DNA of 11,498 nucleotides, taken from IMG/VR virus record IMGVR_UViG_2698536395_000021; one strand, written 5' to 3'. Each line of letters begins with the position of its first letter. Position 1 is the stretch's first letter. Positions 1 through 11,498 of this stretch are shown here, one piece after another. The notes under the pieces were generated by a model. It searched no databases. It saw only the letters and a list, made by a program, of their open reading frames with translations, and was not told the DNA's origin. The translations under genes were made by a program, and so were the position numbers. Source of the DNA: a virus. Lineage: Duplodnaviria; Heunggongvirae; Uroviricota; Caudoviricetes.

Positions 1-351
1 GCCTGCGATGCCCTGCAGATGGCGCTGTGGCGGCGTAAGAGGCCCCGGAACGTTATCGTTCACACGGACCGTGGAGGCCAGTACTGTTCAGCAGATTATC
101 AGGCGCAACTGAAGCGGCATAATCTGCGTGGAAGTATGAGCGCAAAAGGTTGCTGCTACGATAATGCCTGCGTGGAAAGCTTCTTTCATTCGCTGAAAGT
201 GGAATGTATCCATGGAGAACACTTTATCAGCCGGGAAATAATGCGGGCAACGGTGTTTAATTATATCGAATGTGATTACAATCGGTGGCGGCGGCACAGT
301 TGGTGTGGCGGCCTCAGTCCGGAACAATTTGAAAACAAGAACCTCGCTTAG
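1..351 (+). CDS. IS3-family transposase OrfB (DDE integrase core), C-terminal part; 5' end outside window
   Basis: Frame is open from base 1; the listed ATG at 19 is internal. Translation ...[55 protein letters not shown]...[19 protein letters not shown] matches the conserved C-terminus of IS3-family OrfB (IS2/IS3/IS600 pattern; IS600 assignment from memory). Confidence 0.9.
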
Positions 352-381
352 GCCTGTGTCCATATTACGTGGGTAGGATCA
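1..381 (+). mobile_element. Right end of an IS3-family insertion sequence (IS600-like), cut by the window edge; terminus placed at ...GTGGGTAGGATCA (381)
   Basis: Seen: transposase C-terminus in frame 1 from base 1; sequence 369-381 GTGGGTAGGATCA resembles the IS3-family right terminus (reverse complement of the TGATCnTACCCA left-end consensus, recalled from memory). GC-richer than the downstream cassette. Exact IR length not determined. Confidence 0.8.
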
Positions 382-502
382 CGCAGGGGTCGGCCCATTT
401 GAGCTTCAGATAGGAACGTTTGAATTCCTTTCACAAAATACATCACATACTGAACGTGAACATTCCCACTTTGATCTTAAGGCCAAAAAGTATGCAGGAC
501 TA

Positions 503-2221
503 ATGATTTTTAGGGATAGCTTGAGAGTATTACCTTATGGTCGAGTAGATAATGATTTCTTCCAGATAGAAGAAAGACGTTCATGGAATGCAGGGCGATA
601 TTATTGGTCTAATAGAAGGATTTTTGGTTATATTGGAATTACTCAATCCAGTAATAAAGAGCTGAAAGATAAGTCGGGGAGAGAGGGATTCATAAGAAAC
701 CAGGCTGCAAGAGAACTGAAAACTATTATATCTAATTTGTTAACTGAACTTGCTGATAGATTTTTTGGTTCACGTTCTGATGACCGTAAAGAGCTTTTAG
801 AACAAGTTAAGCGTGAAAAAGAGTTAAGAAAATCTGCTCAACAACAAGCTCGAAAATCAACACAAAAAAGTTTTTCAGAAGCTTTGAAGAATCAGACACC
901 AGTTCTTGATGCTTCCTTGGAGGCTGTTAAAAGGCTGAAAACTAAGCTTGATAAAACTGATGGTTCGTTAGATTTAAACTATCTTAAAATTATAGACAGT
1001 GATCTTACAAACTTAGATGCGTTGCGCAGTGAAATTAAAACGCCTATCAAACCTCCAAAACTTGGAATGTATGAAGAGAAATATAGAGACTACAGAGATA
1101 AATTTAATGAGTTCTCTGCGTATATTCTACAAATGAAGTTAGCAATTAATAAACTTGATTCTGAATTAAATAAACTTGAGCCTTCATTGTCAGCGAAAAA
1201 TCACCTTGAAAAAAATCAAGGTATTATTAATTCTAAACTAACTAAGTTTAATAACACGATAGAGGAGAAGATACATTCTCTTTTAAAAAAATGGGCCGAT
1301 GAAATAAAGGTTGATCGAAGTGATTATTATGCTAAAACTATATCAGTTGTTGATTCAATAGATAATGATTCACAAATTGAAAATGTGTTTAATTTGCTCG
1401 ATAGTTTATATGTTGAGTCAGTTGATACCCTAACTTTCAAATATCAATCAATAATAAAAGGTCTCGATAGATTATTTGAAGGTATAAACTTAGATTCAGC
1501 ATTCTCATTATCTGAAGAAGAACGCTCATATTTTGAAGAAAAAGCTAAAAGTTTAAACGCGCTTGCACAGTTAGGTATTAGTGTTGAGATAATATCTCAT
1601 GAACTTGAAGAAATGGATTCTATGGTAACCAGAGGACTAAACTCTCTTCCTACTTCTGTAAAAGAACACCCTGGTTTTTCATTGGCGTTAAATGCTCACA
1701 GATCGCTTACTCAACAAATACGTTTCTTATCACCTTTGAAAATATCAGGTTATCAATCCAGGCAGAGAATAACTGGAAAAAATATCATGGATTATGTCCT
1801 GAAGTTCTTTGGGGAGCGTTTCGAACGGCAACGAATAACTATTGAATTTAGTGAAGAGTTTAAGCAAATCGCAATAACAGATATACCATTAAGGATCTAT
1901 CCTGTTTTTACTAATATTATCAACAATGCAATGTATTGGGTCAGTCTGTCAAATAATAGGCTCATAAAGATTGGTTTTGTGAATTCTTTGGTTATCATAG
2001 CAAATTCTGGTCCGGCAATTGATACCGATGATATCCCGCGACTATTTGAACTATTTTATAGCAAAAGAGCAAATGGACATGGGGTAGGTCTGTATCTATG
2101 TCGAGAAAACCTTGCTGTTGCACATCATAAAATATGGTATTCAGAACCTGATGAAGGCGATAACTATTTAATAAAAGATGGCGCTAATTTTGTGATCCAG
2201 TTCAATGGAGTGGAGTTCTAA
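503..2221 (+). CDS. Soluble histidine-kinase-like protein: N-terminal domain, long coiled coil, DHp-like His-box, C-terminal HATPase_c; possibly N-terminally truncated by the upstream IS
   Basis: 572 aa ORF, AGGA 4 nt upstream of ATG. No obvious TM segments. Coiled-coil-like region (KELLEQVKREKELRKSAQQQARK...). His-box-like ISHELEEM. HATPase_c motifs in order: N-box VFTNIINNAMYW, G1-like IANSGPAID, F-box-like LFELFYSKR, G2 GHGVGLYL. Motifs seen directly; domain assignment is by comparison with the histidine-kinase consensus from memory. Confidence 0.8.
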   Translation: MIFRDSLRVLPYGRVDNDFFQIEERRSWNAGRYYWSNRRIFGYIGITQSSNKELKDKSGREGFIRNQAARELKTIISNLLTELADRFFGSRSDDRKELLEQVKREKELRKSAQQQARKSTQKSFSEALKNQTPVLDASLEAVKRLKTKLDKTDGSLDLNYLKIIDSDLTNLDALRSEIKTPIKPPKLGMYEEKYRDYRDKFNEFSAYILQMKLAINKLDSELNKLEPSLSAKNHLEKNQGIINSKLTKFNNTIEEKIHSLLKKWADEIKVDRSDYYAKTISVVDSIDNDSQIENVFNLLDSLYVESVDTLTFKYQSIIKGLDRLFEGINLDSAFSLSEEERSYFEEKAKSLNALAQLGISVEIISHELEEMDSMVTRGLNSLPTSVKEHPGFSLALNAHRSLTQQIRFLSPLKISGYQSRQRITGKNIMDYVLKFFGERFERQRITIEFSEEFKQIAITDIPLRIYPVFTNIINNAMYWVSLSNNRLIKIGFVNSLVIIANSGPAIDTDDIPRLFELFYSKRANGHGVGLYLCRENLAVAHHKIWYSEPDEGDNYLIKDGANFVIQFNGVEF

Positions 2222-2222
2222 T

Positions 2223-3971
2223 ATGACAGTGGCAAATTATAATTCTCTTGTCCAGAAAACTTTCTGCGAAAATGCAATTCGTTCCGTTGTCATGATTGAT
2301 GACGATTTTCTGACGTATTCTGAATCAATCAGGGCGTTGAATAACGAAGTTGATTTAGACTACAACAAAATTGACTCATCTAAACGAGCCGCTACTCTTG
2401 AGAGCTTTTTTCAATCTAAAAATATGATTTGTGATGTTGACAATGGTTCTGTTAATTTCGATGTGGATCGGATTAGAAAATCAGATCTTATTATTGTAGA
2501 TTATCATCTTGATAATAATGCACCTGATAAAACACTTAAACTATTACAAGATTTGAAAGACTCCGATCATTTAAATATGATTGTAATATATACTAGAGAG
2601 AATTTAGAAACGGTTTGGATGCAGATATCATCGACTCTCAAAGGTGCTCTGGATATCAACAGCTTGATCATTGACTACGATAATGAAGATGTCCAAAGTT
2701 ATTGGGAAGACGTTGTATTACCGAACTTAAATGATAATGGTAATAAAGCTCTCACAAGAGATGAAATAATAGCCTATATTAAAGACAGTAAGCCTTGTAG
2801 AAGAATTAAAAGATTAATACATGATGATGCTGTGTTGGAGGATCAAAAGGATAAAAACTTCATTGCAAAAATGATTGCAGAATATGCTGTGTCTAGAAAT
2901 GCAATTATTTCTAGCAACACATCTGGCAATGTCATTCGGGGTGATGAAAGCGGAGTAAAATGGATTCAATGTGGTAATATCTTTGTCTCCCTATTTCATA
3001 AGGTTCAAGATGATCATGAAAACGATGGAGATAGGATTTGGCAAACTCTCAATGATTCTCTCATTGAATGGAAACCATCTTATTATCAGTTAATAAAATC
3101 TGAAATTCAGAATGCAATCGAAGCTGAGGCTTTATCTTTTGTAAATCATTTGGCTAACGATCATTACGGTCAAGCTGCGTGGTTAAATGAGATATTAAAA
3201 TCAGACTCGCCTGATATTAGATGTAGAAATATTGACTTTGTATTTGGTAATTTATCAGAAGAGCTTTATCAAAGACTTAAAAATAATAATACGCTGGATG
3301 AATTTATCAAAAGTGTTTTTGATAGCTATTCAAATGAATACGCTAACAGCGGAGTTGCTGCATTGCTCCAATATTGCTCTTCAAAAATGGATCTGCCATC
3401 AAATAATGATACTTATCACGAAATGTATCATGCTTTAAATATGAATTTGTCTTCAAAGAATTTTGAAGATGGTCATATTTCTACTGGCACTATTTTCTTT
3501 GATACAGAGTCGAACAAATGGTATTTATGTGTATCTGCGGCATGTGATTTGGTTCCTACTCAGGGTAACGACCCTCACCATGTAAGATTAAGTCCGCACA
3601 GGCTCATTAAAGTTCTGGAGCTTTTTAACGCCAGTCAGAGTAAAGCATTGCCATTTGCTGAACATTCGAAATATATATATGTAATGCATAAAAATCAAAG
3701 AAAATATCTCTCTATTTTCGAAGGGGATAAAACGCTTCCTGTTGTTGATTATATGGTGGTGTTGAATCATGGAACAACAGTTGATGGCGAAGAAAAAAAT
3801 ATTATTTCTGCCGTGTTTTTAAGTAATATGGATGGCAACGTGCAAAATGTTCCTGTCCGACTCAAACTTAAATCTCAACTGAGAACTGGTTATGCAGAAA
3901 GATATCAGGCTATAGCGTCTCAGTATAGCTCAAGGATTGGTGTGGATTATGTATCAATGATGCTACCATAA
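2223..3971 (+). CDS. Receiver (REC)-like domain protein with a large C-terminal domain of unknown function; no recognisable DNA-binding output
   Basis: Start moved from the ORF-track ATG at 2205 to ATG 2223 (MTVANYNSL...): it lies 1 nt after the upstream TAA (2219-2221) and 7 nt after GGAGTGGAG. The N-terminal ~130 aa fits a receiver fold: VVMIDDD (acidic pair), DLIIVDYHLDNN (candidate phospho-acceptor Asp), NMIVIYT (conserved Thr position), then a Lys. The remaining ~450 aa show no motif I can assign. Confidence 0.8.
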   Translation: MTVANYNSLVQKTFCENAIRSVVMIDDDFLTYSESIRALNNEVDLDYNKIDSSKRAATLESFFQSKNMICDVDNGSVNFDVDRIRKSDLIIVDYHLDNNAPDKTLKLLQDLKDSDHLNMIVIYTRENLETVWMQISSTLKGALDINSLIIDYDNEDVQSYWEDVVLPNLNDNGNKALTRDEIIAYIKDSKPCRRIKRLIHDDAVLEDQKDKNFIAKMIAEYAVSRNAIISSNTSGNVIRGDESGVKWIQCGNIFVSLFHKVQDDHENDGDRIWQTLNDSLIEWKPSYYQLIKSEIQNAIEAEALSFVNHLANDHYGQAAWLNEILKSDSPDIRCRNIDFVFGNLSEELYQRLKNNNTLDEFIKSVFDSYSNEYANSGVAALLQYCSSKMDLPSNNDTYHEMYHALNMNLSSKNFEDGHISTGTIFFDTESNKWYLCVSAACDLVPTQGNDPHHVRLSPHRLIKVLELFNASQSKALPFAEHSKYIYVMHKNQRKYLSIFEGDKTLPVVDYMVVLNHGTTVDGEEKNIISAVFLSNMDGNVQNVPVRLKLKSQLRTGYAERYQAIASQYSSRIGVDYVSMMLP

Positions 3972-4042
3972 TTATTATATTTTAGGCGTGGTGATTTTTT
4001 TTCGCCATGCCTATTTTATATTTATCATCACAATGATGTTGT

Positions 4043-4459
4043 TTATTTTTGTTTAAGTCTTCTAAGCTTCATGCATTCTAATGAGAATAATAATAGAGTT
4101 GTGCTGTATATAAAGCCAGAGTTAGTTAATAACTTTAAATTTAATGCTTCAGGATTTTCACTGAGAAAGTGAAAGGCATAAACTAAGTATACAGCTAAAG
4201 TAGCCGTTCCAATTGTTGGTCCAATATCGCCTTGATCATGAGGTTCAAGGTTTACATTGAACTTGAAGATTAGCCATTCAAATCCCCAAGTAAAAAAAAC
4301 AACTAATATCATGGCTGCGAATAATTTCGCGATGTTATCTGCTGATGGATTCATCAGAACAGATTGTTTCTGAAAAAATTCACAAAGTGAGAGTCCGAAA
4401 AAAATAAAAAAAAGTGGTCTGGAACTAAATTTTTCAAAAACTTTGAATAGGGTTTCCAT
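4043..4459 (-). CDS. Small hydrophobic membrane protein (about 4 predicted TM helices), function unknown
   Basis: 138 aa ORF with ATG start, 38 bp downstream of and co-directional with the integrase. Hydrophobic stretches PLFFIFFGLSL, LFAAMILVVFFTWGFEWLIF, ATLAVYLVYAFHF, FIYSTTLLLFSL. AT-rich like the adjacent cassette. Confidence 0.6.
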   Translation of the reverse strand: METLFKVFEKFSSRPLFFIFFGLSLCEFFQKQSVLMNPSADNIAKLFAAMILVVFFTWGFEWLIFKFNVNLEPHDQGDIGPTIGTATLAVYLVYAFHFLSENPEALNLKLLTNSGFIYSTTLLLFSLECMKLRRLKQK

Positions 4460-4497
4460 TTTCTTTACCTTCAGGATTATATTAGCTATTCTGATAC

Positions 4498-5727
4498 TTA
4501 GGCTACCAGAGCATTTGATCTTTGAGCTTGAACGTAATCACTCCACCATTGCATCAAACTCTGTCGCTCTATCAGATATTCTGCACGATTGTATGCTGCG
4601 ATAATTTCATCTTTTTTCGAGTGGGCAAGCGCTGCCTCAAGAACTTCAGCTCTGAATTTACCAGACTCCTCTGCCGCTGTTCGTGCAATAGAACGCATAC
4701 CGTGAGCTACAAGCTCGCCTCCGAACCCCATTCGGATGATAGCTGCGTTGGCTGTTTGTTCATGCATATGATTAAGAGGCGCTTTTATGCTGGGGAAAAC
4801 CCATTCTCTATGCCCACTTATTGATTTCATTAATTCAAGGATGCGCAAAGCTTCTTTACTCAAAGGAACTTTGTGAAGCTTTTTCATTTTCATGAAATCA
4901 GCAGGAATGTTCCAAATGCTGTTGGTTGTATCAATATCAGACCACCTTGCGCGAACGGCTTCACCCGGACGAACCCATGTCAACAATTGCCATTCAATTA
5001 GCATACGTGTTTCCAACCGGATTGACGCATTCGTCAAAGATTCCATAAACCTTGGCAATTCGCTTGGGGGAAGGGCAGGCATATTTTGCTTTTTTGGTTT
5101 ACTGAATCTTTGACCAAGGTTGTCAGCCGGGTTGAACTCAATAAGTTCTTCAGTAGCTGCCCACCGGAAGATTTCATTCAGACGTGAAATGATACGGCGT
5201 AGAGTTTCCAATACGCCTCGTTGCTCAATAGGATCAAGGTGTTGTTTTAAGAGCTTAGGTCGGATCTCATTGATAGGGACATTACCCAGACCGGGAAAGA
5301 CATTTCTCTCTAAGCTGCGCCAGATGTCTGCTGCATGGTCTTGTGAGATACCTGATGTCTTTACCTTCTCATCTAACCATTTCCGCGCTACGGCTTGGAG
5401 AGTGTGCTCAGTAGCACTCTTTAATGCCTTCGCCTTATCGTTGTTATGGATTTGGGGATCAACACCATTTGCCAGAAAGGAGAGATATTCATCACGTAAG
5501 GCTCTGGCTCTTGCAAGGGTAAGGTGAGGATATGTCCCAAGGCTCATTTTGGTTCTTTTCTTGCTCACGGGTACTGCATACCTGAAATACCAATTTTTCT
5601 TGCCTCCTTTCGCCAAAGGAGCGATTCGTAGAATCAGACCATCACCGTCAAACAAGTTGATTTCTTTATCGGCTGGCTTGGTGCTTTTGATTTCAGTGTC
5701 AGTGAGCTTCTTAGCGATTTTTGCCAT
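4498..5727 (-). CDS. int: P4-type tyrosine integrase (IntA/CP4-57-like)
   Basis: Start taken at the ATG at 5727 (MAKIAKKLTDTEIK...), which has GAGG 8 nt upstream and aligns with the N-terminus of E. coli IntA as I recall it; the ORF-track start at 5769 has no SD. Matches include DGDGL, ADIWRSLERNVFP, ALRILELMK, HGMRSIARTAA, LAHSKKDEIIAAYNRAEYLIERQSLMQWW. Confidence 0.92.
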   Translation of the reverse strand: MAKIAKKLTDTEIKSTKPADKEINLFDGDGLILRIAPLAKGGKKNWYFRYAVPVSKKRTKMSLGTYPHLTLARARALRDEYLSFLANGVDPQIHNNDKAKALKSATEHTLQAVARKWLDEKVKTSGISQDHAADIWRSLERNVFPGLGNVPINEIRPKLLKQHLDPIEQRGVLETLRRIISRLNEIFRWAATEELIEFNPADNLGQRFSKPKKQNMPALPPSELPRFMESLTNASIRLETRMLIEWQLLTWVRPGEAVRARWSDIDTTNSIWNIPADFMKMKKLHKVPLSKEALRILELMKSISGHREWVFPSIKAPLNHMHEQTANAAIIRMGFGGELVAHGMRSIARTAAEESGKFRAEVLEAALAHSKKDEIIAAYNRAEYLIERQSLMQWWSDYVQAQRSNALVA

Positions 5728-5824
5728 TTTGGGACCCTCGGTTTTTGGACCCTTCTTAGTGGGTCCCATTCAGGGTGCCATAACTCGTAGTTCTCAGCAA
5801 TTCTCACTGGACGACAATAGACGT

Positions 5825-5856
5825 AAAAAAGCCCGCAGAGCTTGTGCTGTGTGGGC
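5825..5856 (-). terminator. Rho-independent terminator on the minus strand, between the ssrA-like core and the integrase
   Basis: Minus-strand RNA reads GCCCACA-(loop CAGCACAAGCUC)-UGCGGGC then UUUUUU. Stem has 4 G-C pairs, one A/C mismatch, then 2 more pairs. The plus strand has the A-tract before the hairpin, so it is minus-specific. Confidence 0.5.
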
Positions 5857-5891
5857 TTAGTAGACTTCATTGAACTTCAAACAACTAAAAA

Positions 5892-5916
5892 GTGGAGCTG
5901 GCGGGAGTTGAACCCG
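5892..5916 (-). other. Attachment-site core: 25-bp copy of the 3' end of tmRNA (ssrA), without the rest of the gene
   Basis: Minus strand reads CGGGTTCAACTCCCGCCAGCTCCAC, identical to the E. coli ssrA T-arm/acceptor 3' segment as I recall it. The CCA end is replaced by TTTTT, and upstream sequence does not continue as tmRNA; no 5' acceptor partner within 400 bp. Lies about 165 bp upstream of the P4-type int start. Confidence 0.7.
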
Positions 5917-5975
5917 TGCCCGAGCAATGCTTAACCCATTGAATAACAATGCATTCTCTGTTTAAAAATGCCTCA

Positions 5976-5997
5976 AGTGCATTTTGAGTGCATTTTC
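5976..5997. repeat. Perfect tandem direct repeat of an 11-bp unit (AGTGCATTTTG / AGTGCATTTTC)
   Basis: Seen directly at 5976-5986 and 5987-5997, about 60 bp from the att core on the prophage side; a related AATGCATTCTCTG lies at 5948-5960. Confidence 0.5.
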
Positions 5998-6025
5998 TGG
6001 TCCTCTCTTGGTCCATACAACGAGA

Positions 6026-6967
6026 TTAAGTGGCCACTTGAAGTTCCGGCCCTGCGTCGCTATCTATTAACGGCTGACCTTGAACCATTTTTTCAACCAT
6101 ATCGTTTGAAGGATATGGAACCCCGAGCTCAACCGTATTAGGGTTGGAACGGTGGGTTTCAACAAACGATGTTCCGTTCCATTTTTTTGAAAGGTAGATT
6201 ATTCCTTCAAAGGCTGCAGGGTCCTGTTTCTGAGACTCTAAGATCATGTGGAAGCCACGACGTTCTATCCCGCGTAAGAAGCTGGAGAAGCACTCCCTCA
6301 GTAATTCGTCATCCAAATCCTTGAACTTGATACCCTGCGCAAGAAACTCGAAATAATTAAGAATATATAAAAGGCCATTGATGGCATCCCTGTACTCATC
6401 GGGGACCTTCATATTCTTGTATTCTTCTTTGTCTGGGTTGCAGCGCCACTCTGATAGTTCTTGTGGTACATAACGCATGCCCCGATAGAATTTGGTGCTG
6501 TTCCGAAGCTGTTTTTGGTACTCCGGGCTTGTTCGGGTGTTAATGATCATGTTCAGCGTGTGGGACCTGCGCGTGTTAGCAGCGGACGTTATGCATTGTA
6601 TCCACCATCCCATTCCAACGAGCATTCCTGTAACCATGATCGAAAGCGATGTTTGATAGGCCGGTGTGTACCTTAAAATTGCATATCCAATAAGGATAAT
6701 CACATAACAAACAGTGCTGAACATAGGAAGAAATTCTGCAGTGTCTGGATAGCGTTTTTTGATGAAGCAGAAGATAGAAGATATTGCTGCACCAGAACCA
6801 GCAATGACGATCAGCCAATCAATGATGGCGATGCTAAATGGTAGTTTTCCAGGGTAGATATAAGTAAAAAGTGCTCTGACAATCATCATTAGAGCAAAAA
6901 TTGTAGCGCTGACGTTGACTAATGTTCTCGCCATCTTATTGATTCCTATAACAAAAGACCTCCGCAT
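6026..6967 (-). CDS. Membrane protein: N-terminal about 4 TM helices plus about 180 aa soluble C-terminal domain; function unknown (prophage cargo or moron candidate)
   Basis: 313 aa ORF with ATG start (alternative Met 12 codons in, MARTLVNV...). Hydrophobic segments ATIFALMMIV, AIIDWLIVIAGSGAAISSIFCFI, MFSTVCYVIILIGYAIL, SIMVTGMLVGMGWWI, then a charged C-terminal domain. Sits between the lambda-type int 3' end and the att core. Confidence 0.75.
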   Translation of the reverse strand: MRRSFVIGINKMARTLVNVSATIFALMMIVRALFTYIYPGKLPFSIAIIDWLIVIAGSGAAISSIFCFIKKRYPDTAEFLPMFSTVCYVIILIGYAILRYTPAYQTSLSIMVTGMLVGMGWWIQCITSAANTRRSHTLNMIINTRTSPEYQKQLRNSTKFYRGMRYVPQELSEWRCNPDKEEYKNMKVPDEYRDAINGLLYILNYFEFLAQGIKFKDLDDELLRECFSSFLRGIERRGFHMILESQKQDPAAFEGIIYLSKKWNGTSFVETHRSNPNTVELGVPYPSNDMVEKMVQGQPLIDSDAGPELQVAT

Positions 6968-7012
6968 GGGAGGCCTTATTGTGCTAATGGAGGTTTGTTT
7001 TAAAATTTTAGG

Positions 7013-7098
7013 TTGTAGTTAACCTTCACCGAAACCTACGGTCAGTGTCTTTTTCATAGTGTTCACTCCAGTTGTGGTGCTTCGCCGATACCTACGTT
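7013..7098. repeat. Imperfect direct repeat of about 30 bp (TTGTAGTTAACCTTCACCGAAACCTACGGT ... TTGTGGTG-CTTCGCCGATACCTACGTT), copies about 57 bp apart
   Basis: Seen directly; the 17-bp cores CTTCACCGAAACCTACG (7024-7040) and CTTCGCCGATACCTACG (7080-7096) differ at 2 positions. Lies in the 450-bp AT-rich non-coding gap between the 313-aa gene start and the int stop. Confidence 0.5.
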
Positions 7099-7416
7099 AA
7101 GCTCTTGAAAAGTAAAAAAACATAAAAGTTTTAGAATTTGTGGAGCACAGGATAACAGTTTGTACTGGGACTCATCAAGTACTATCAGTGTCCTTGCACT
7201 GTCCTAGTGAAAATTTATTGCAATAAAGTAACTTACGTGAAGTCAAGAAATATATTTGCACTCCATTTCTTGCTATGATGTAAGTTATTGATTTTAATTA
7301 AATTTACAATTACCTAAATGAACTATGGAAACTATCAATAACATAGATGATAGCTCATTTCACAAAAAGCAATGGTAGACTCATTCTTAATTTTCATCAG
7401 CCTTAAGCCTATGTAC

Positions 7417-8592
7417 TCAGCTTGACACAACATTTATAGACGTTTTACCATCGTATTCAGCCAGGTATTTACCGTAATTGCGGAACAGCATTTCCGGCCC
7501 CTTATGCCCCATCTGCCCGGCAAGCCAGAAAAGGTTTACACCCTGGCTAATGTGTCTGGTGGCGAATGTGTGGCGCGTCTGGTACGGGTTACGGTAGCGC
7601 ACACCAGCTTTTTTCAGGGTCGGCACCCATGCTTTTTTACGGATAGCGTCGGCGTTCGTCCAGGGTTCTCCCGTTTTCGGATCGCTGAATATGAACTCAC
7701 TTTTCATAAAGGTGTATTGCTTCTGCGCCTGCAGGGCTGCCAGCGCCTCACTGTTCAGCTCCACCTTACGGGTACCGGCTTTTGTCTTGGTGCCTTTAAG
7801 TACCCCTACGACACTGGCCGCCTGAACGTGGGCTGTGTTCGCGATGGTGTCGAGATCAGCCCAGCGCAGCGCGCACAGTTCTGAGCTCCGCAGACCTGTA
7901 TTGAAAGCAAAGCGGAACAGGTTTTCCCATTCCCTGTACCTGCAGCTCTGGTAAATGGCAAGGGTCTCCGCTGGCGTGAACGGGTCAACCTCGTAATCGT
8001 CGGCGCTCGGGCTACTGTCGATCACGTGGTACCGGCTGGCGCTGACGAGGGTTACCGGGTTAATGGTCAGCAGGCCATCCGTAACAGCTTCATCAATGGC
8101 GCTGCGCAGAAATGACAGGTTATTCCTGATTGTTTTCAGCTTAGTTTTTCGGCTGGCTATCCAATTTTTTAGTATCGCAGGCGTCAATTCTGTTACATGT
8201 AGTTTATGTAGTTCTGATAGTGCTGATAGACATTTTTCGTAACCGCCAATGGTTGACGGCGACAGATTACGGTTTATGCAAATTTTCAGGTATTCATCAA
8301 GATAGGACTTAATATTTTTGGTTTTCTTTACTACACCGAATAACTCCAGTTTTTTGGAATTGGGGAAATATTTCGCATATTCAAACGTTCCGCTGGCGAT
8401 CTGATTTTGTATCTCCCCTAGCAGGCGCTCAGCATATTTTATACCACGTGTATTTGCCTCAAGCCGAGATAGGGGCTCCCTGCAAAGAACCCCTTTATAT
8501 GTGAAAGTGATAACTAGTGTTGAAGCAGTTTTATGCTTACGAATAGTTACTCCTCTTGGCAGAGATAATAATCCTTGTTCTTTCTTGCCCAT
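7417..8592 (-). CDS. int: Lambda-type tyrosine integrase (phage integrase family)
   Basis: Start taken at the ATG at 8592 (MGKKEQGLLSLPRGV...), with AGAGG 7 nt upstream; the ORF-track start 8619 is 9 codons further up. C-terminal catalytic region ...LRWADLD...RHTFATRHISQGVNLFWLAGQMGHKGPEMLFRNYGKYL has the conserved R/H/Y pattern. 5' end overlapped by an excisionase-like gene, as in lambdoid xis-int. Confidence 0.9.
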   Translation of the reverse strand: MGKKEQGLLSLPRGVTIRKHKTASTLVITFTYKGVLCREPLSRLEANTRGIKYAERLLGEIQNQIASGTFEYAKYFPNSKKLELFGVVKKTKNIKSYLDEYLKICINRNLSPSTIGGYEKCLSALSELHKLHVTELTPAILKNWIASRKTKLKTIRNNLSFLRSAIDEAVTDGLLTINPVTLVSASRYHVIDSSPSADDYEVDPFTPAETLAIYQSCRYREWENLFRFAFNTGLRSSELCALRWADLDTIANTAHVQAASVVGVLKGTKTKAGTRKVELNSEALAALQAQKQYTFMKSEFIFSDPKTGEPWTNADAIRKKAWVPTLKKAGVRYRNPYQTRHTFATRHISQGVNLFWLAGQMGHKGPEMLFRNYGKYLAEYDGKTSINVVSS

Positions 8593-8756
8593 TTTGAAAC
8601 CTCTATTAAGTCGACCCAACGCTCTTTAACCCCGTCGACTTTTAATACATGTACCCCTTCTTTCCATATTCCTCTTTGTATCCGTTTGTTAACGGCATCA
8701 ACCGTTTCTCCCGCGTTGCGGCAGTAGGTTGATATAGGTACGCAATCCAGCCCCAC
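8547..8756 (-). CDS. xis: Excisionase-like small DNA-binding protein (Xis family, tentative)
   Basis: 69 aa ORF starting with GTG, overlapping the int start by about 45 nt. The segment GETVDAVNKRIQRGIWKEGVHVLKVDGVKERWVDLIEVSKWARKNK resembles the lambda Xis winged-helix region (ETVRRWVRE...VKDGREYLF) as I recall it. Start codon uncertain. Confidence 0.6.
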   Translation of the reverse strand: MGLDCVPISTYCRNAGETVDAVNKRIQRGIWKEGVHVLKVDGVKERWVDLIEVSKWARKNKDYYLCQEE

Positions 8757-8764
8757 AGTTCACC

Positions 8765-8911
8765 TCACACAACATTCAGCCCACGACAGTGACACCACAC
8801 TTCAAACATTCGTTTCACAATTTCACGACAGTAGAAACCGTCAACATCTCGCGTCAGGTCATAGCGATTGCCGAATGTCTTGCGAACCCATAACTCAAAA
8901 ACCGTATGCAT
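8765..8911 (-). CDS. Hypothetical 48-aa Cys-rich small protein
   Basis: Hand-translated: MHTVFELWVRKTFGNRYDLTRDVDGFYCREIVKRMFEVWCHCRGLNVV. ATG sits 3 nt after the upstream gene's TGA, same strand as the operon. Below the ORF-track length cutoff; no similarity evidence. Confidence 0.3.
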   Translation of the reverse strand: MHTVFELWVRKTFGNRYDLTRDVDGFYCREIVKRMFEVWCHCRGLNVV

Positions 8912-8914
8912 GTA

Positions 8915-9157
8915 TCACCTCCGTTGCATTGCGCGCAATTTTTTCAGGTGCTTTTCCTGCTCAGTGTCCGCCAGGATTTTGCAATACTGCTGGTGGTCAA
9001 TATGTTCGAACAGGCAGTTGAACTCACCAATGCATACCCGCCCGGAGTGTCCGTCCATACGTCGAAAGAACACAGAGCGGTCCGTACAGCGAGTAATCAC
9101 CACAGGGTATCCGGCCCTGTCCGTGTATATTTGCCCGCGTTGAATAAGTGCGAACAT
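8915..9157 (-). CDS. Hypothetical small phage protein (80 aa)
   Basis: ATG start; co-oriented and close-packed with the surrounding minus-strand operon. Preferred over the overlapping plus-strand ORFs 8868-9143 and 8906-9190 on operon context only. Confidence 0.5.
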   Translation of the reverse strand: MFALIQRGQIYTDRAGYPVVITRCTDRSVFFRRMDGHSGRVCIGEFNCLFEHIDHQQYCKILADTEQEKHLKKLRAMQRR

Positions 9158-9161
9158 GAGA

Positions 9162-9245
9162 TTATCCCCAGCGGCAAATCGAAAAAATAATCAGCGCAAT
9201 CGATATTGCAACACCTACAATTGCAAATGCTTCAGGCCAACTCAT
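9162..9245 (-). CDS. Candidate 27-aa hydrophobic micro-protein (single TM helix)
   Basis: Hand-translated MSWPEAFAIVGVAISIALIIFSICRWG. Its ATG overlaps the upstream stop (ATGA at 9245-9242), and its 3' end TGGGGATAA supplies a GGGG SD for the next gene. No other evidence. Confidence 0.3.
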   Translation of the reverse strand: MSWPEAFAIVGVAISIALIIFSICRWG

Positions 9246-10105
9246 TGACTCACCTCCTGCGGCGGTTCTGGTAGAGGCATCCAGTGGGTTACATCGCATT
9301 CAGGGATGCTGATATCATCACCAAGCCACCCTTGACCTTCAGACCAGCATTGCACGTAATACCCGTATTCTGTGTTCACTACGCACCACTGTGCGTCGTT
9401 CGGCATTAGCTCACTACAGCTTATCCAACCATCCGGAGTTACCGGAACTTGCGGAATGGCTGTCTGCTCTCGAACGTCATTAGGCGCTATAGGTTCTGCT
9501 GCCAACTGACTGGCATATTTGTTAATGGTAACGATAAGCTCTTGCTCAGCCTCATCCAGATAATCACCGATACCTCGCCTGTCACCGTCAAAATCATCGA
9601 AATCGGCACGAATCTTGGCAACCTTCTGGATTGCGGACAACACCTCACTAGGAATTACCGGATAGTTGGTTGACGTTTCCGCGATTTCCCGAAAATTATT
9701 GGTTGACGAATTCTTATTTTCCCGAAAGTTTCTGGCCTGAAGCATGGCGGCGCGGCAGGCATTCCAGCCAGTAGCGTAATATTTCGCATCCTGCCAGCTC
9801 GTTTGTACATTTGAGTACGCTTTTTCCTCTGTCATGGCCTCTGGTATTGATGCCGGTGCAATTCGTGGCAGGCCGATATATAGTGGTACATCTCCCGGCT
9901 CCATCGAATTGACGGGCCAAATATACGCATCACTACCATGGTTAATGAGCGCAATCCCCGAAGTATCGATGATGCCAAATGGCTCCGCTGTCAATGCAGT
10001 CAATGCAATTTCATAAGCCCGACGCTCAATATTGTCTCGCACGTCCAGGCTGCTTATGCGCTCTTTGATTTCTTTAATCAGTTTCTTATCGGTGAAAGTG
10101 GTCAT
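9242..10105 (-). CDS. Lambdoid prophage early-region protein (287 aa); Cys/Trp-rich C-terminal module, possibly DUF551-like
   Basis: ATG start with AAGGAG 6 nt upstream; stop of the upstream gene 1 nt before the ATG. C-terminus ...WISCSELMPNDAQWCVVNTEYGYYVQCWSEGQGWLGDDISIPECDVTHWMPLPEPP is reminiscent of a module common in enterobacterial prophage early genes (from memory; needs HMM confirmation). Confidence 0.75.
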   Translation of the reverse strand: MTTFTDKKLIKEIKERISSLDVRDNIERRAYEIALTALTAEPFGIIDTSGIALINHGSDAYIWPVNSMEPGDVPLYIGLPRIAPASIPEAMTEEKAYSNVQTSWQDAKYYATGWNACRAAMLQARNFRENKNSSTNNFREIAETSTNYPVIPSEVLSAIQKVAKIRADFDDFDGDRRGIGDYLDEAEQELIVTINKYASQLAAEPIAPNDVREQTAIPQVPVTPDGWISCSELMPNDAQWCVVNTEYGYYVQCWSEGQGWLGDDISIPECDVTHWMPLPEPPQEVSQ

Positions 10106-10106
10106 C

Positions 10107-10436
10107 TCACTCTCCTTTGATGCGAATGCCAGCGACGCGTAGTGCGTGTTCTAAGTCAATCAGGCAAAGCCAGCTGCCATTTTCTTTAGGTATCATGACA
10201 TGTCGCTTATCAGCATTTATTGGGTGCCCATATCGAAGGTCGTAGCGAGTCGGTAATTGAACTTCCCTCGCTTCCAGTTCTGTAATGCGTTTGTTTTTAG
10301 CTTCTAGTTCATCCAGCAGCACCAGCACAACCTGCGGTGTGACTTTCATACGAAACGCAAGCAATTTTTGCGGCGTTGCCACGACTTTTATTGCTTCTGC
10401 CGCCTCACGCAGTGCCTGATAGTCAATCTTGCTCAC
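10107..10436 (-). CDS. Hypothetical lambdoid early-region protein (109 aa); possibly Ead/Ea22-like
   Basis: GTG start with AGGAGG 6 nt upstream, overlapping the upstream stop (GTGA). Coiled-coil-like LLDELEAKNKRITELEAREVQ. Family name is a guess from memory. Confidence 0.65.
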   Translation of the reverse strand: MSKIDYQALREAAEAIKVVATPQKLLAFRMKVTPQVVLVLLDELEAKNKRITELEAREVQLPTRYDLRYGHPINADKRHVMIPKENGSWLCLIDLEHALRVAGIRIKGE

Positions 10437-10672
10437 TGGTTGCCTCCTTTACGGATCTGCGCTGCGATGCGCGAAAAAAAAGCCTCCCGCGTATGGCTGT
10501 TAAGAGCTGGCGCGAACGCCGCGTTAAGAACGGCAGCATCACAGCCGTCATCGATATAGAGCGCAATTTTTTTCTCCAGGCGCGCTTTGGCTTCCTGCAA
10601 CTGCATACCCCGGCACGCACGCGGGATATAATCAGCAATTTGAGCGATAGCTTTTTCGTTCTGTTTAAACAT
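10433..10672 (-). CDS. Hypothetical phage protein (79 aa)
   Basis: ATG start; overlaps the upstream gene by 8 nt and the downstream gene by 4 nt. Amino-acid composition looks natural, unlike the overlapping Arg-rich 120-aa ORF 10423-10785. Confidence 0.6.
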   Translation of the reverse strand: MFKQNEKAIAQIADYIPRACRGMQLQEAKARLEKKIALYIDDGCDAAVLNAAFAPALNSHTREAFFSRIAAQIRKGGNQ

Positions 10673-10868
10673 GCTTCACCTCGATAGGCTTGATGGTGTC
10701 TAACAGCAGTCGGCGGCGCGTATTTTCTGCAAAATGGCGGCGTCCAGTTTCTTTGTGGTAAAACTCGTTTTTGCCAACGACCCACATCCGCTCTGTTTGG
10801 TGCAATTTTTTTACCTGCGGGCCATCTTTGGTGATCACGGTACCGGTATGGGTTTTTACGATTGTCAT
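10665..10868 (-). CDS. Hypothetical phage protein (67 aa)
   Basis: ATG at 10868 overlaps the upstream gene's TGA (ATGA at 10868-10865). Confidence 0.6.
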   Translation of the reverse strand: MTIVKTHTGTVITKDGPQVKKLHQTERMWVVGKNEFYHKETGRRHFAENTRRRLLLDTIKPIEVKHV

Positions 10869-11498
10869 GCCACGACCTCTTCGAATTTCAACTCCAATTG
10901 GTCACCCCAGATTTCACATGATTCGGAACACGAACCAGTATCAAACCGCTTGGCCAGCACCATCGCCTGATACAAACTTCTGTAGTCGCTGTCGGCATAC
11001 ATTCTGGCAATCCCGTCAAGCGTCAGGTGACCACGGTACATAACGTCTTTACCTGTTCTGCGATGACCATCCCTGACGTGTTTGCCTGTAACCAGTTCAT
11101 TAAAAACCCGCATCAGACCGGGTTCGTCTTTACATGCAAGCCCCAGCTTTTGCGTTGACTTTTTGATGCAAAAAACACAGTTCCCGAGGTGCTCCGGGAT
11201 TTGCAAATCAAAAGGTTGTTTTTGCCACCACCGGATAACATCCGACTTATCAAAATCTGACAGCTCGGCAAGATACCGGACGCCAGGTTTCGGTTTCAGC
11301 CTACGGGGTTCGTCCGCACGAATACCGAGCCATGTGATGTAATTCCCTCGCCCAAAATGGTCATCGCAATATTTCGTGAAAGGGGTGAGTTTTAGCCTGT
11401 CAGTACAGAATGCGCCGCCGATGTATGAGGTGTACTGGCAATAGCGGCCACTACCATTTGTTCTTTTTTTAAGCAGCCATCTGATGATATTTTTCCCT
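10865..11498 (-). CDS. PAPS-reductase-like (phosphoadenosine phosphosulfate reductase family) phage protein, C-terminal part; N-terminus beyond the window
   Basis: The ORF-track TTG at 11206 is only the first start codon in the window. Hand translation shows the same frame open with no stop from 11497: ...GKNIIRWLLKKRTNGSGRYCQYTSYIGGAFCTDRLKLTPFTKYCDDHFGRGNYITWLGIRADEPRRLKPKPGVRYLAELSDFDKSDVIRWWQKQPFDLQIPEHLGNCVFC... LGIRADE and the following W-rich and Cys motifs fit the PAPS reductase family as found in lambdoid prophages (from memory). Confidence 0.6.
   Translation of the reverse strand, partial: GKNIIRWLLKKRTNGSGRYCQYTSYIGGAFCTDRLKLTPFTKYCDDHFGRGNYITWLGIRADEPRRLKPKPGVRYLAELSDFDKSDVIRWWQKQPFDLQIPEHLGNCVFCIKKSTQKLGLACKDEPGLMRVFNELVTGKHVRDGHRRTGKDVMYRGHLTLDGIARMYADSDYRSLYQAMVLAKRFDTGSCSESCEIWGDQLELKFEEVVA

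Follow-up and report, generated by a model that had tools for sequence, protein, structure and literature searches.

This study addressed the question of what a sharply AT-rich block, caught between the end of an IS3 element and an integrase gene, is and how it came to lie there. The window, the whole 11,498-nucleotide (nt) stretch analyzed here, comes from the IMG/VR virus record IMGVR_UViG_2698536395_000021, and its block at positions 382-4470 carries a histidine-kinase gene, a gene for a receiver (REC) protein, and a small membrane-protein gene. Our answer, to which we assign a probability of roughly 85%, is that the block is the surviving ssrA-proximal, truncated, and decaying cargo of a mobile island inserted at the 3' end of ssrA, the transfer-messenger RNA (tmRNA) gene. 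An integrative mobilizable island entered at this 3' end, and an IS3-associated deletion in the Escherichia coli lineage removed everything distal to kinase codon ~376, including a methylase gene and the N-terminal GHKL ATPase of the kinase. The scar of that deletion forms the sharp left compositional edge at 381/382, and prophages inserted later at ssrA pushed the remnant away from ssrA. The system is most probably inactive in the window.

The original prediction, made by eye, described the block as an island of roughly one-third G+C between flanks of 45-50%, with the switch falling at the IS3 end on the left and the integrase 3' end on the right, and computation agreed with it on each of these points. 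The sliding-window G+C content was 0.47-0.52 over the first 450 bases, 0.28-0.37 at ~450-4650, and 0.42-0.47 from ~4500 onward. The G+C content of 382-4470 was 33.9% and that of 503-4460 was 33.6%, compared with 51.7% for the IS3 end (1-381), 45.1% for the integrase gene int1, and 46.3% for the whole right flank (4471-11498); the difference between the block and the right flank corresponded to z = -16. A two-breakpoint maximum-likelihood segmentation placed the edges at 396 and 4500 (log-likelihood gain 97.8), which are at most 15 nt from the IS3 end (381) and 2 nt from the integrase stop codon (4498). The block is thus a genuine compositional island, far beyond what chance would give.

Codon usage, the second check that had been proposed, also set the block apart from both the flanks and the host core. 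The third-position G+C content (GC3) was 0.25 in the kinase gene, 0.28 in the receiver gene, and 0.27 in the membrane-protein gene, whereas it was 0.42-0.56 in IS3 orfB, both integrase genes, the DUF4760 gene, and the prophage genes. The host core was represented by 9.3 kb of nearby core DNA, stpA to glaH, with 53.8% G+C. Scored against its synonymous codons, the three cassette genes reached -1.32 to -1.46 per codon and the core genes -0.88 to -1.31. The Karlin dinucleotide distance (x1000) of the block was 148-190 to the host core DNA but 64 to int1, the closest signature found, which fits the block and int1 belonging together. A repeat search of the window revealed none bounding the block.

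The left edge is an IS3-associated deletion scar within the kinase gene and not an acquisition boundary. Aligned with the intact Salmonella locus, the window is homologous from exactly 382 onward, with the break at 381/382; therefore, the DNA for ~376 kinase codons is missing. Full-length kinase homologs of 988 amino acids (aa) and 99% identity occur in Salmonella, Klebsiella, and Serratia, and they consist of HATPase_c_3 (a paraMORC-type GHKL domain), HEF_HK, and HATPase_c. The HATPase_c_3 ATPase domain is missing from the window kinase, whose gene is cut at nt 382 by IS3, and the native start, the promoter, and the upstream methylase gene are lost with it. The annotated kinase open reading frame (ORF; 503-2221, 572 aa) begins at an internal Met; the frame is open from 383, and 383-520 can be translated without a stop codon up to the IS3 terminus. 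The IS3 end matched Pfam rve_2, rve_3, and rve and is labeled in RefSeq as an IS3-like element IS3 family transposase. Because a 3-bp target duplication is lacking, simple insertion of IS3 was ruled out. The 3 bp on either side of the element differ (TCT vs CGC), which therefore indicates an IS3-associated deletion or recombination instead, and the other side of IS3 adjoins a truncated ygaQ-like amylase pseudogene.

Intact copies of the element were found in other enterobacteria. The integrase gene, the 138-aa membrane-protein gene, the receiver gene, and the kinase gene occur in the same order and at ~99% identity directly beside smpB-ssrA in Salmonella- and Serratia-type contigs. In the intact loci (L002 and L005-L008), smpB (or, in Salmonella, the bap operon), ssrA, the integrase gene, and the 138-aa gene are followed, on the other strand, by the genes for the methylase, kinase, and receiver. 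The methylase belongs to the C5 cytosine type (PF00145, E = 8.6e-59; TIGR00675 dcm), and its gene overlaps the kinase start by 20 nt, with one base between the kinase stop codon and the receiver start. Farther out lie small ORFs, a NikA-like gene, a relaxase gene, and at least two more tyrosine recombinase genes. The intact element is an integrative mobilizable island at ssrA. No IS3 was found in the intact islands, whose AT-rich DNA runs at least 11 kb past the point that corresponds to the left edge of the block. In the distal part of the island (L002 and L005; 1-3634), two adjacent tyrosine recombinase genes are followed by an ORF of 543-626 aa without a domain match, a layout that recalls recombinase-in-trio elements.

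The intact islands also account for the right edge. Because they are 25-38% G+C almost throughout, except for the integrase gene (45%) and the relaxase/NikA module (43-45%), between host flanks of 52-58%, the edge at ~4500 is the internal join of AT-rich cargo and a 45% G+C integrase module within one element. The ssrA-proximal end of that element lies beyond int1. In L002 and L005, the tmRNA gene ends ~165 nt upstream of the integrase start, and upstream of int1 the window shows full identity with these islands as far as a short partial copy of the ssrA 3' end, after which the sequences diverge. ARAGORN detected no tRNA or tmRNA gene in the window but did detect tmRNA genes in L002 and L005, and Rfam detected no RNA family in the window. 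This partial copy is the attachment-site core at the ssrA-proximal end of the int1 island. The shared gene order at ssrA, the core, and the low signature distance to int1 support the view, already put forward in the original prediction, that the cassette is cargo of the integrase island.

Islands and prophages with P4-type integrases that target ssrA occur in Enterobacterales, CP4-57 in E. coli K-12 being an example. Like these, the present element has an Arm-DNA-bind_3 tyrosine integrase transcribed away from the tmRNA 3' end and an att core that duplicates that end, and elements stand in tandem at ssrA. Its presence is sporadic, with a match in 586 of 5,426 complete E. coli genomes and the whole block in 560, and its composition is anomalous (33.9% G+C vs 53.8% in the host core). 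Unlike CP4-57-type elements, it carries a methylase-kinase-receiver triad and a relaxase/NikA module as cargo and has no prophage genes. Approximately 5.5 kb of the island survives in the window. The int1 product scored 440 bits against NCBIfam PRK09692 (cut-off 434), and the RefSeq start gives a protein of 409 aa (4498-5727).

The window is 100% identical to E. coli O26:H11 strain 11368 and to many other E. coli genomes. In strain 11368, a lambdoid prophage of ~52 kb with espK, espN, and nleL lies between the remnant and the true ssrA (record 3604541-3604903), and the integrase of this prophage is the second integrase of the window. Strain 600468 has an identical remnant and a different element in the ssrA-proximal slot. 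The different occupants of this slot in the two strains indicate that ssrA was used repeatedly and that the remnant is an older occupant; the site is a hotspot for varied prophages and defense cargo. The block could alternatively have been brought in by its neighbors, either as part of an IS3 composite transposon or as a moron of the right-hand lambdoid prophage, given that IS3 adjoins it on the left and the prophage lies ~1.5 kb past the integrase on the right. However, IS3 is present on one side only, has no target-site duplication, and is missing from the intact islands; int1 and the ssrA att core separate the prophage from the block; and in strain 600468 the block is unchanged beside another element. 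We consider an origin from either neighbor highly improbable.

The ssrA scar between int1 and the DUF4760 gene shows the tandem integration of two elements at ssrA. In strain 600468, the slot (L014, 11779-14563) holds an anti-phage dCTP deaminase gene beside a site-specific integrase gene and a CI-type repressor gene, with no effector prophage of the enterohemorrhagic E. coli (EHEC) kind.

The original prediction had further attributed the cassette to a lower-GC donor. The low and anomalous G+C content on which this was based stands, but the attribution is not established by it: the nearest relatives, at 99% identity, are enterobacterial islands of equal composition, and the best protein matches were headed by Salmonella, Klebsiella, and Serratia and not by a low-GC group. 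The triad also occurs on an integrative conjugative element (ICE) in E. coli, where the kinase is 72% identical, in integrase islands of Aeromonas veronii and Pantoea dispersa, and in Acinetobacter junii beside Tn7-type transposition genes (TnsB to TnsE). Although receiver-protein identity to the window copy falls to 43% across these carriers, the triad was 31-38% G+C in every host and carrier examined, in surroundings of 53-59% in Aeromonas, 55% in Pantoea, 54-58% in the E. coli ICE backbone, and 39% in Acinetobacter. Low G+C is thus a stable, persistent trait of the mobile cassette, and a content that is constant across hosts gives no indication of one particular recent donor. As the immediate source for E. 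coli, another enterobacterial ssrA island is the most likely, and a long-term low-GC reservoir of the cassette is possible.

A recent direct import from a low-GC organism, such as Acinetobacter or other Moraxellaceae, would instead make the AT-richness an un-ameliorated donor signature. Many homologs of 45-65% identity are found in Acinetobacter species, the cassette (31-35% G+C there) comes closest to its host (39%) in that genus, and its GC3 in the window is like that of a low-GC genome. Nevertheless, even in Acinetobacter the cassette stays below the host G+C content and lies beside Tn7-type transposition genes, its composition is held in hosts of 39-59%, and its closest relatives are the enterobacterial copies in the same ssrA island. 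In addition, the window-specific substitutions are mostly from GC to AT and therefore give no sign of amelioration. Such an import seems unlikely to us, and the enterobacterial island remains the preferred source.

Overlap of the methylase gene with the start of the kinase gene was seen not only in the intact ssrA islands but also in Aeromonas, Pantoea, and the E. coli ICE; in Acinetobacter, the methylase and receiver genes converge. In the A. junii locus (L010, 1-13104), the kinase, receiver, and methylase genes and an XRE-type helix-turn-helix gene lie directly downstream of TnsB, TnsC, TnsD, and TnsE and look like transposon cargo.

The kinase and receiver belong to the HEF_HK and Response_reg_2 families, which were defined in a purely computational study by Bellieny-Rabelo, Pretorius and Moleleki (2021, Genome Biol Evol; PMC8011034). 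That study described a soluble two-component-like pair (91.6% linked in 644 regions) that shows a strong association with C5 methylases and restriction-modification (R-M) genes, is related to paraMORC ATPases, and in which HATPase_c_3, HEF_HK, and HATPase_c form the predominant 'group 1' architecture (PMC8011034). The window pair is like these in that both Pfam domains score above their cut-offs, the kinase gene directly precedes the receiver gene, and the catalytic residues are kept; the intact orthologs share the group 1 architecture and have a C5 methylase gene overlapping the kinase start. The window copy differs in having neither HATPase_c_3 nor a linked C5 methylase. Its kinase mimics 'group 2' but is not a natural variant, because HATPase_c_3 was removed by the IS3-associated deletion. 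We observed further 572-aa 'ATP-binding protein' entries of ~83% identity, beginning at the same internal Met, from Pectobacterium, Klebsiella, Salmonella, Yersinia ruckeri, and Morganella. Some 'short architecture' HEF_HK members in databases may be truncations or annotation artifacts and not natural variants.

The distribution of the block in E. coli points to one truncation followed by decay. All 28 of the 28 full-length copies sampled across the ranking were at least 99.8% identical, and the same IS3 junction was present in 484 E. coli genomes. A probe comprising the methylase gene and the kinase N-terminus matched with only its last 74 bases in all 555 genomes; because the match always ends at the same point, every E. 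coli copy of this allele carries the identical truncation. No intact copy of this allele, and no methylase gene or kinase N-terminus belonging to it, was found in the 5,426 complete E. coli genomes. These matches suggest that the truncation in E. coli is a single ancestral event.

Substitution patterns differed between the intact and the truncated copies. The five intact copies differed by 1 nonsynonymous and 19 synonymous changes, which indicates strong purifying selection, whereas the window-specific changes comprised 8 nonsynonymous and 6 synonymous ones (Fisher p = 0.0012). Among 10 E. coli copies, 16 nonsynonymous changes and 1 nonsense change were counted against 2 synonymous changes; these counts differed from the intact set (p = 6e-8) and were compatible with neutrality (p = 0.40). 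A frameshifting indel in the receiver gene was common to three strains among the 10, and, of the 8 sampled copies that diverge most, RefSeq calls the receiver gene frameshifted in 3 and interrupted by an internal stop in 1. The membrane-protein gene had 0 substitutions in the 10 copies with ~2 expected by chance, a difference that is not significant and was not used as evidence. The comparisons show that the kinase fragment and the receiver gene are no longer under purifying selection, and the cassette is a drifting fossil.

A domesticated locus, in which the truncated kinase and the receiver form a working and possibly rewired two-component module in O26, would explain several features of the window: both ORFs are uninterrupted; the H-box His, HATPase_c, and the phospho-acceptor Asp are kept; and ~10% of complete E. 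coli genomes still have the block. Bellieny-Rabelo et al., moreover, list a naturally occurring 'group 2' that has no N-terminal ATPase. However, the kinase has lost its native start, its promoter, and the upstream methylase; E. coli copies gain nonsynonymous changes at a neutral rate, several of them with a frameshift or stop in the receiver gene; and the homologous N-terminal ATPase is essential in Ambrosia, a defense system considered below. A working module is therefore quite improbable in our estimation, and the interpretation of the block as decaying island cargo is retained.

The function of the system before its truncation may be approached through its relatives. Ambrosia of Pseudomonas aeruginosa, an experimentally validated anti-phage system, consists of AbrR, AbrA, AbrB, AbrC, and AbrD (bioRxiv 10.1101/2025.09.30.679545). 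Its parts are an N6 methylase, the Hsp90-like-ATPase kinase AbrB, a short receiver with a described winged-helix, an HNH nuclease, and an XRE regulator; the substitution N40A in the N-terminal ATPase of AbrB abolishes defense, and the receiver Asp is also required (bioRxiv 10.1101/2025.09.30.679545). In our comparison, AbrB (first 399 aa) and the full-length kinase aligned as colinear, distant homologs, with E = 6e-11 for the N-terminal ATPase and E = 4e-6 for the R-V-x-P-Y-G region, and the ATPase domain required in AbrB is the counterpart of the domain deleted in the window kinase. Ambrosia and the intact triad are alike in that one cluster encodes a DNA methylase, a receiver protein, and a soluble kinase whose N-terminal ATPase is Hsp90/MORC-like. 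They differ in three respects. AbrA is an N6 adenine methylase, whereas its counterpart in the intact island at ssrA is of the C5 cytosine type; AbrC is a canonical Response_reg protein of 209 aa, whereas the protein here has 582 aa, Response_reg_2 only, and a C-terminal part of 355 aa without a fold match; and none of the intact island's genes encodes an HNH domain, as AbrD does, or an XRE domain, as AbrR does. Only the locus of Acinetobacter has an XRE gene, which recalls AbrR, and Aeromonas has an HNH_2 gene at a distance of ~4 kb.

A second resemblance is to restriction enzymes of the BbrUII/HgiDII family, which contain a GHKL/paraMORC domain. The full-length kinase matched the N-terminus of their NCBIfam model NF050001 with E = 1.5e-13 and 50.2 bits against a cut-off of 550, residues 13-138 being aligned. 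The likeness thus lies in the N-terminal ATPase head and the C5 methylase partner, whereas the remainder of the kinase is a coiled-coil and a histidine-kinase core with no recognizable nuclease. The association of paraMORC proteins with R-M genes was reportedly described by Iyer, Abhiman and Aravind in 2008. The methylation-associated defense system (MADS) was rejected as a relative because the 'histidine kinase' of its paper is only a flanking marker gene.

On the analogy of these systems, we infer for the intact triad the role of a methylation-linked immune or addiction module, with R-M-like anti-phage or anti-plasmid activity. Self DNA would carry the mark of the methylase, foreign DNA or infection would be detected by the kinase through its N-terminal ATPase, and a predicted His-to-Asp phosphotransfer would switch on the C-terminal output domain of the receiver. 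More specifically, the triad in Salmonella, Klebsiella, Serratia, and the E. coli ICE might be an R-M-like immune system with phosphotransfer to an output domain of ~355 residues, a nuclease-less relative of Ambrosia whose safe loss is recorded by the E. coli fossil; we advance this proposal tentatively, at slightly below even odds. A single deletion of both the methylase and the sensor ATPase may have been a safe way to lose the system.

Several points weigh against the overall interpretation. The intact loci were retrieved with 10-kb flanks, and the distal end of the island lies beyond them. The selection analysis comprised few substitutions and a sample biased to the most divergent E. coli copies. 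RefSeq annotates both uninterrupted ORFs of the window as intact genes, and some residual or rewired kinase/receiver activity could, strictly speaking, persist in O26. The kinase fragment matched none of the PADLOC-DB v2 models, Detocs-type and candidate systems included as far as that release has them, and the only match of the receiver protein in that database was to an unrelated transmembrane model (E = 0.007). The defense role of the intact triad is reasoned from analogy, and the output domain of its receiver has no recognizable fold relatives.

The features of the window are listed in Table 1.

Table 1. Positions of the features identified in the window
Feature	Position	Strand	Basis or composition
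IS3 3' end	1-381	+	orfB C-terminus 19-351 and right terminal inverted repeat ending ...GTGGGTAGGATCA at 381
5'-truncated paraMORC-type histidine-kinase gene	382-2221	+	33.6% G+C, GC3 0.25
HEF_HK dimerization/phosphoacceptor (DHp) domain	1568-1744	+	Pfam PF19191, 26.1 bits vs cut-off 24.1
HATPase_c catalytic domain, kinase C-terminus	1886-2161	+	Pfam PF02518, 44.8 bits vs cut-off 26.4
582-aa Response_reg_2 protein (REC)	2223-3971	+	Pfam PF19192, 109.1 bits vs cut-off 27
Terminator-like hairpin	3983-4013		12-bp stem followed by a T run; consensus scan
138-aa hydrophobic protein	4043-4459	-	32.1% G+C
P4-type tyrosine integrase int1	4498-5769	-	Pfam Arm-DNA-bind_3, Phage_int_M, Phage_integrase; 45.1% G+C
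Partial copy of ssrA (tmRNA) 3' end, 25 nt	5892-5917	-	GTGGAGCTGGCGGGAGTTGAACCCG on + strand; att core
Start of different ssrA-integrated element	5918-11498	-	Pfam; context, outside the AT-rich island
DUF4760 gene	6026-6967	-	Pfam
Lambdoid integrase (second of the window)	7417-8619	-	Pfam; early prophage genes beyond

The H-box motif of the kinase is SHELEE, in which the His is encoded by codon 366 (nt 1598-1600). The receiver gene, directly adjacent on the same strand, starts at 2223, the kinase stop codon having its last base at 2221. The Response_reg_2 match covers residues 25-181 of a 588-aa ORF (2205-3971), the 582-aa form starting at 2223. The receiver domain is N-terminal (~nt 2277-2747), with acidic residues (DDD) occupying aa 26-28 and nt 2499-2501 encoding the phospho-acceptor Asp93, and D26, D27, D93, and T124 were invariant in 37 homologs of 23-86% identity to the query. 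AlphaFold2 modeled the full protein with a predicted local distance difference test score of 85.6 and the C-terminal part with 85.1. Foldseek with the full model returned only weak receiver/flavodoxin-like PDB matches to the N-terminal part; the C-terminal ~355 aa, modeled separately, had no match at E <= 0.001 in PDB or BFVD, and a PDB sequence search with the receiver protein returned nothing. A recognizable nuclease in the C-terminal domain is not supportable on these searches, there being no fold match in PDB or BFVD. The terminator-like hairpin sits between the convergent receiver and membrane-protein genes and marks the end of the methylase-kinase-REC operon.

The 138-aa protein has one strong and approximately three moderate hydrophobic segments. 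It had no family match in Pfam, NCBIfam, or PADLOC, and PADLOC likewise gave no convincing match for the DUF4760 protein. In E. coli O157:H7 493/89, the 138-aa gene lies beside the integrase gene at 94% identity with different cargo, and the corresponding place next to the triads of Acinetobacter, Pantoea, and the E. coli ICE has no gene of its size. The protein thus belongs to the island backbone and not to the kinase/REC module. The O157:H7 493/89 cargo beside these two genes (L012, 7374-10857) comprises a frameshifted DUF6119 gene, a His-Xaa-Ser (Hxs) radical S-adenosylmethionine (SAM) system, and an ABC-three-component system. Homology of the window to that strain, noted at 3867-4470, begins ~105 nt inside the 3' end of the receiver gene, a point at which cargo may have been exchanged by recombination.

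To the right of the island, a second, smaller AT-rich dip (~32-34% G+C) was observed at 6968-7500, in the spacer that separates the DUF4760 gene from the lambdoid integrase gene's 3' end, followed by a GC-rich peak (54-59%) at 7500-8100 inside the latter gene. The dip presumably contains the prophage attachment region, in which case the DUF4760 gene would be a prophage-end moron. At 9242-10105, the window has an uninterrupted ORF of 287 aa with a C-terminal DUF551 domain, whereas RefSeq gives one short DUF551 coding sequence and two DUF551 pseudogene fragments for this region in O26 strain 11368 (L001, 20861-21724).

Both the gene family, computationally, and the genomic-island phenomenon have already been described. 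The present locus shows the tandem occupancy of the ssrA site and an AT-rich cargo that is constant in composition across carriers and hosts, and it counsels caution when a specific donor is to be deduced from low G+C. Hundreds of E. coli genomes, those of EHEC O26, O103, and O111 among them, have an annotated 572-aa 'ATP-binding protein' that is a pseudogene fragment truncated by IS3, and this form should not be counted as a natural short HEF_HK architecture. The object of biological interest is the intact methylase-kinase-receiver triad, which lies outside the window and is a reasonable experimental target.

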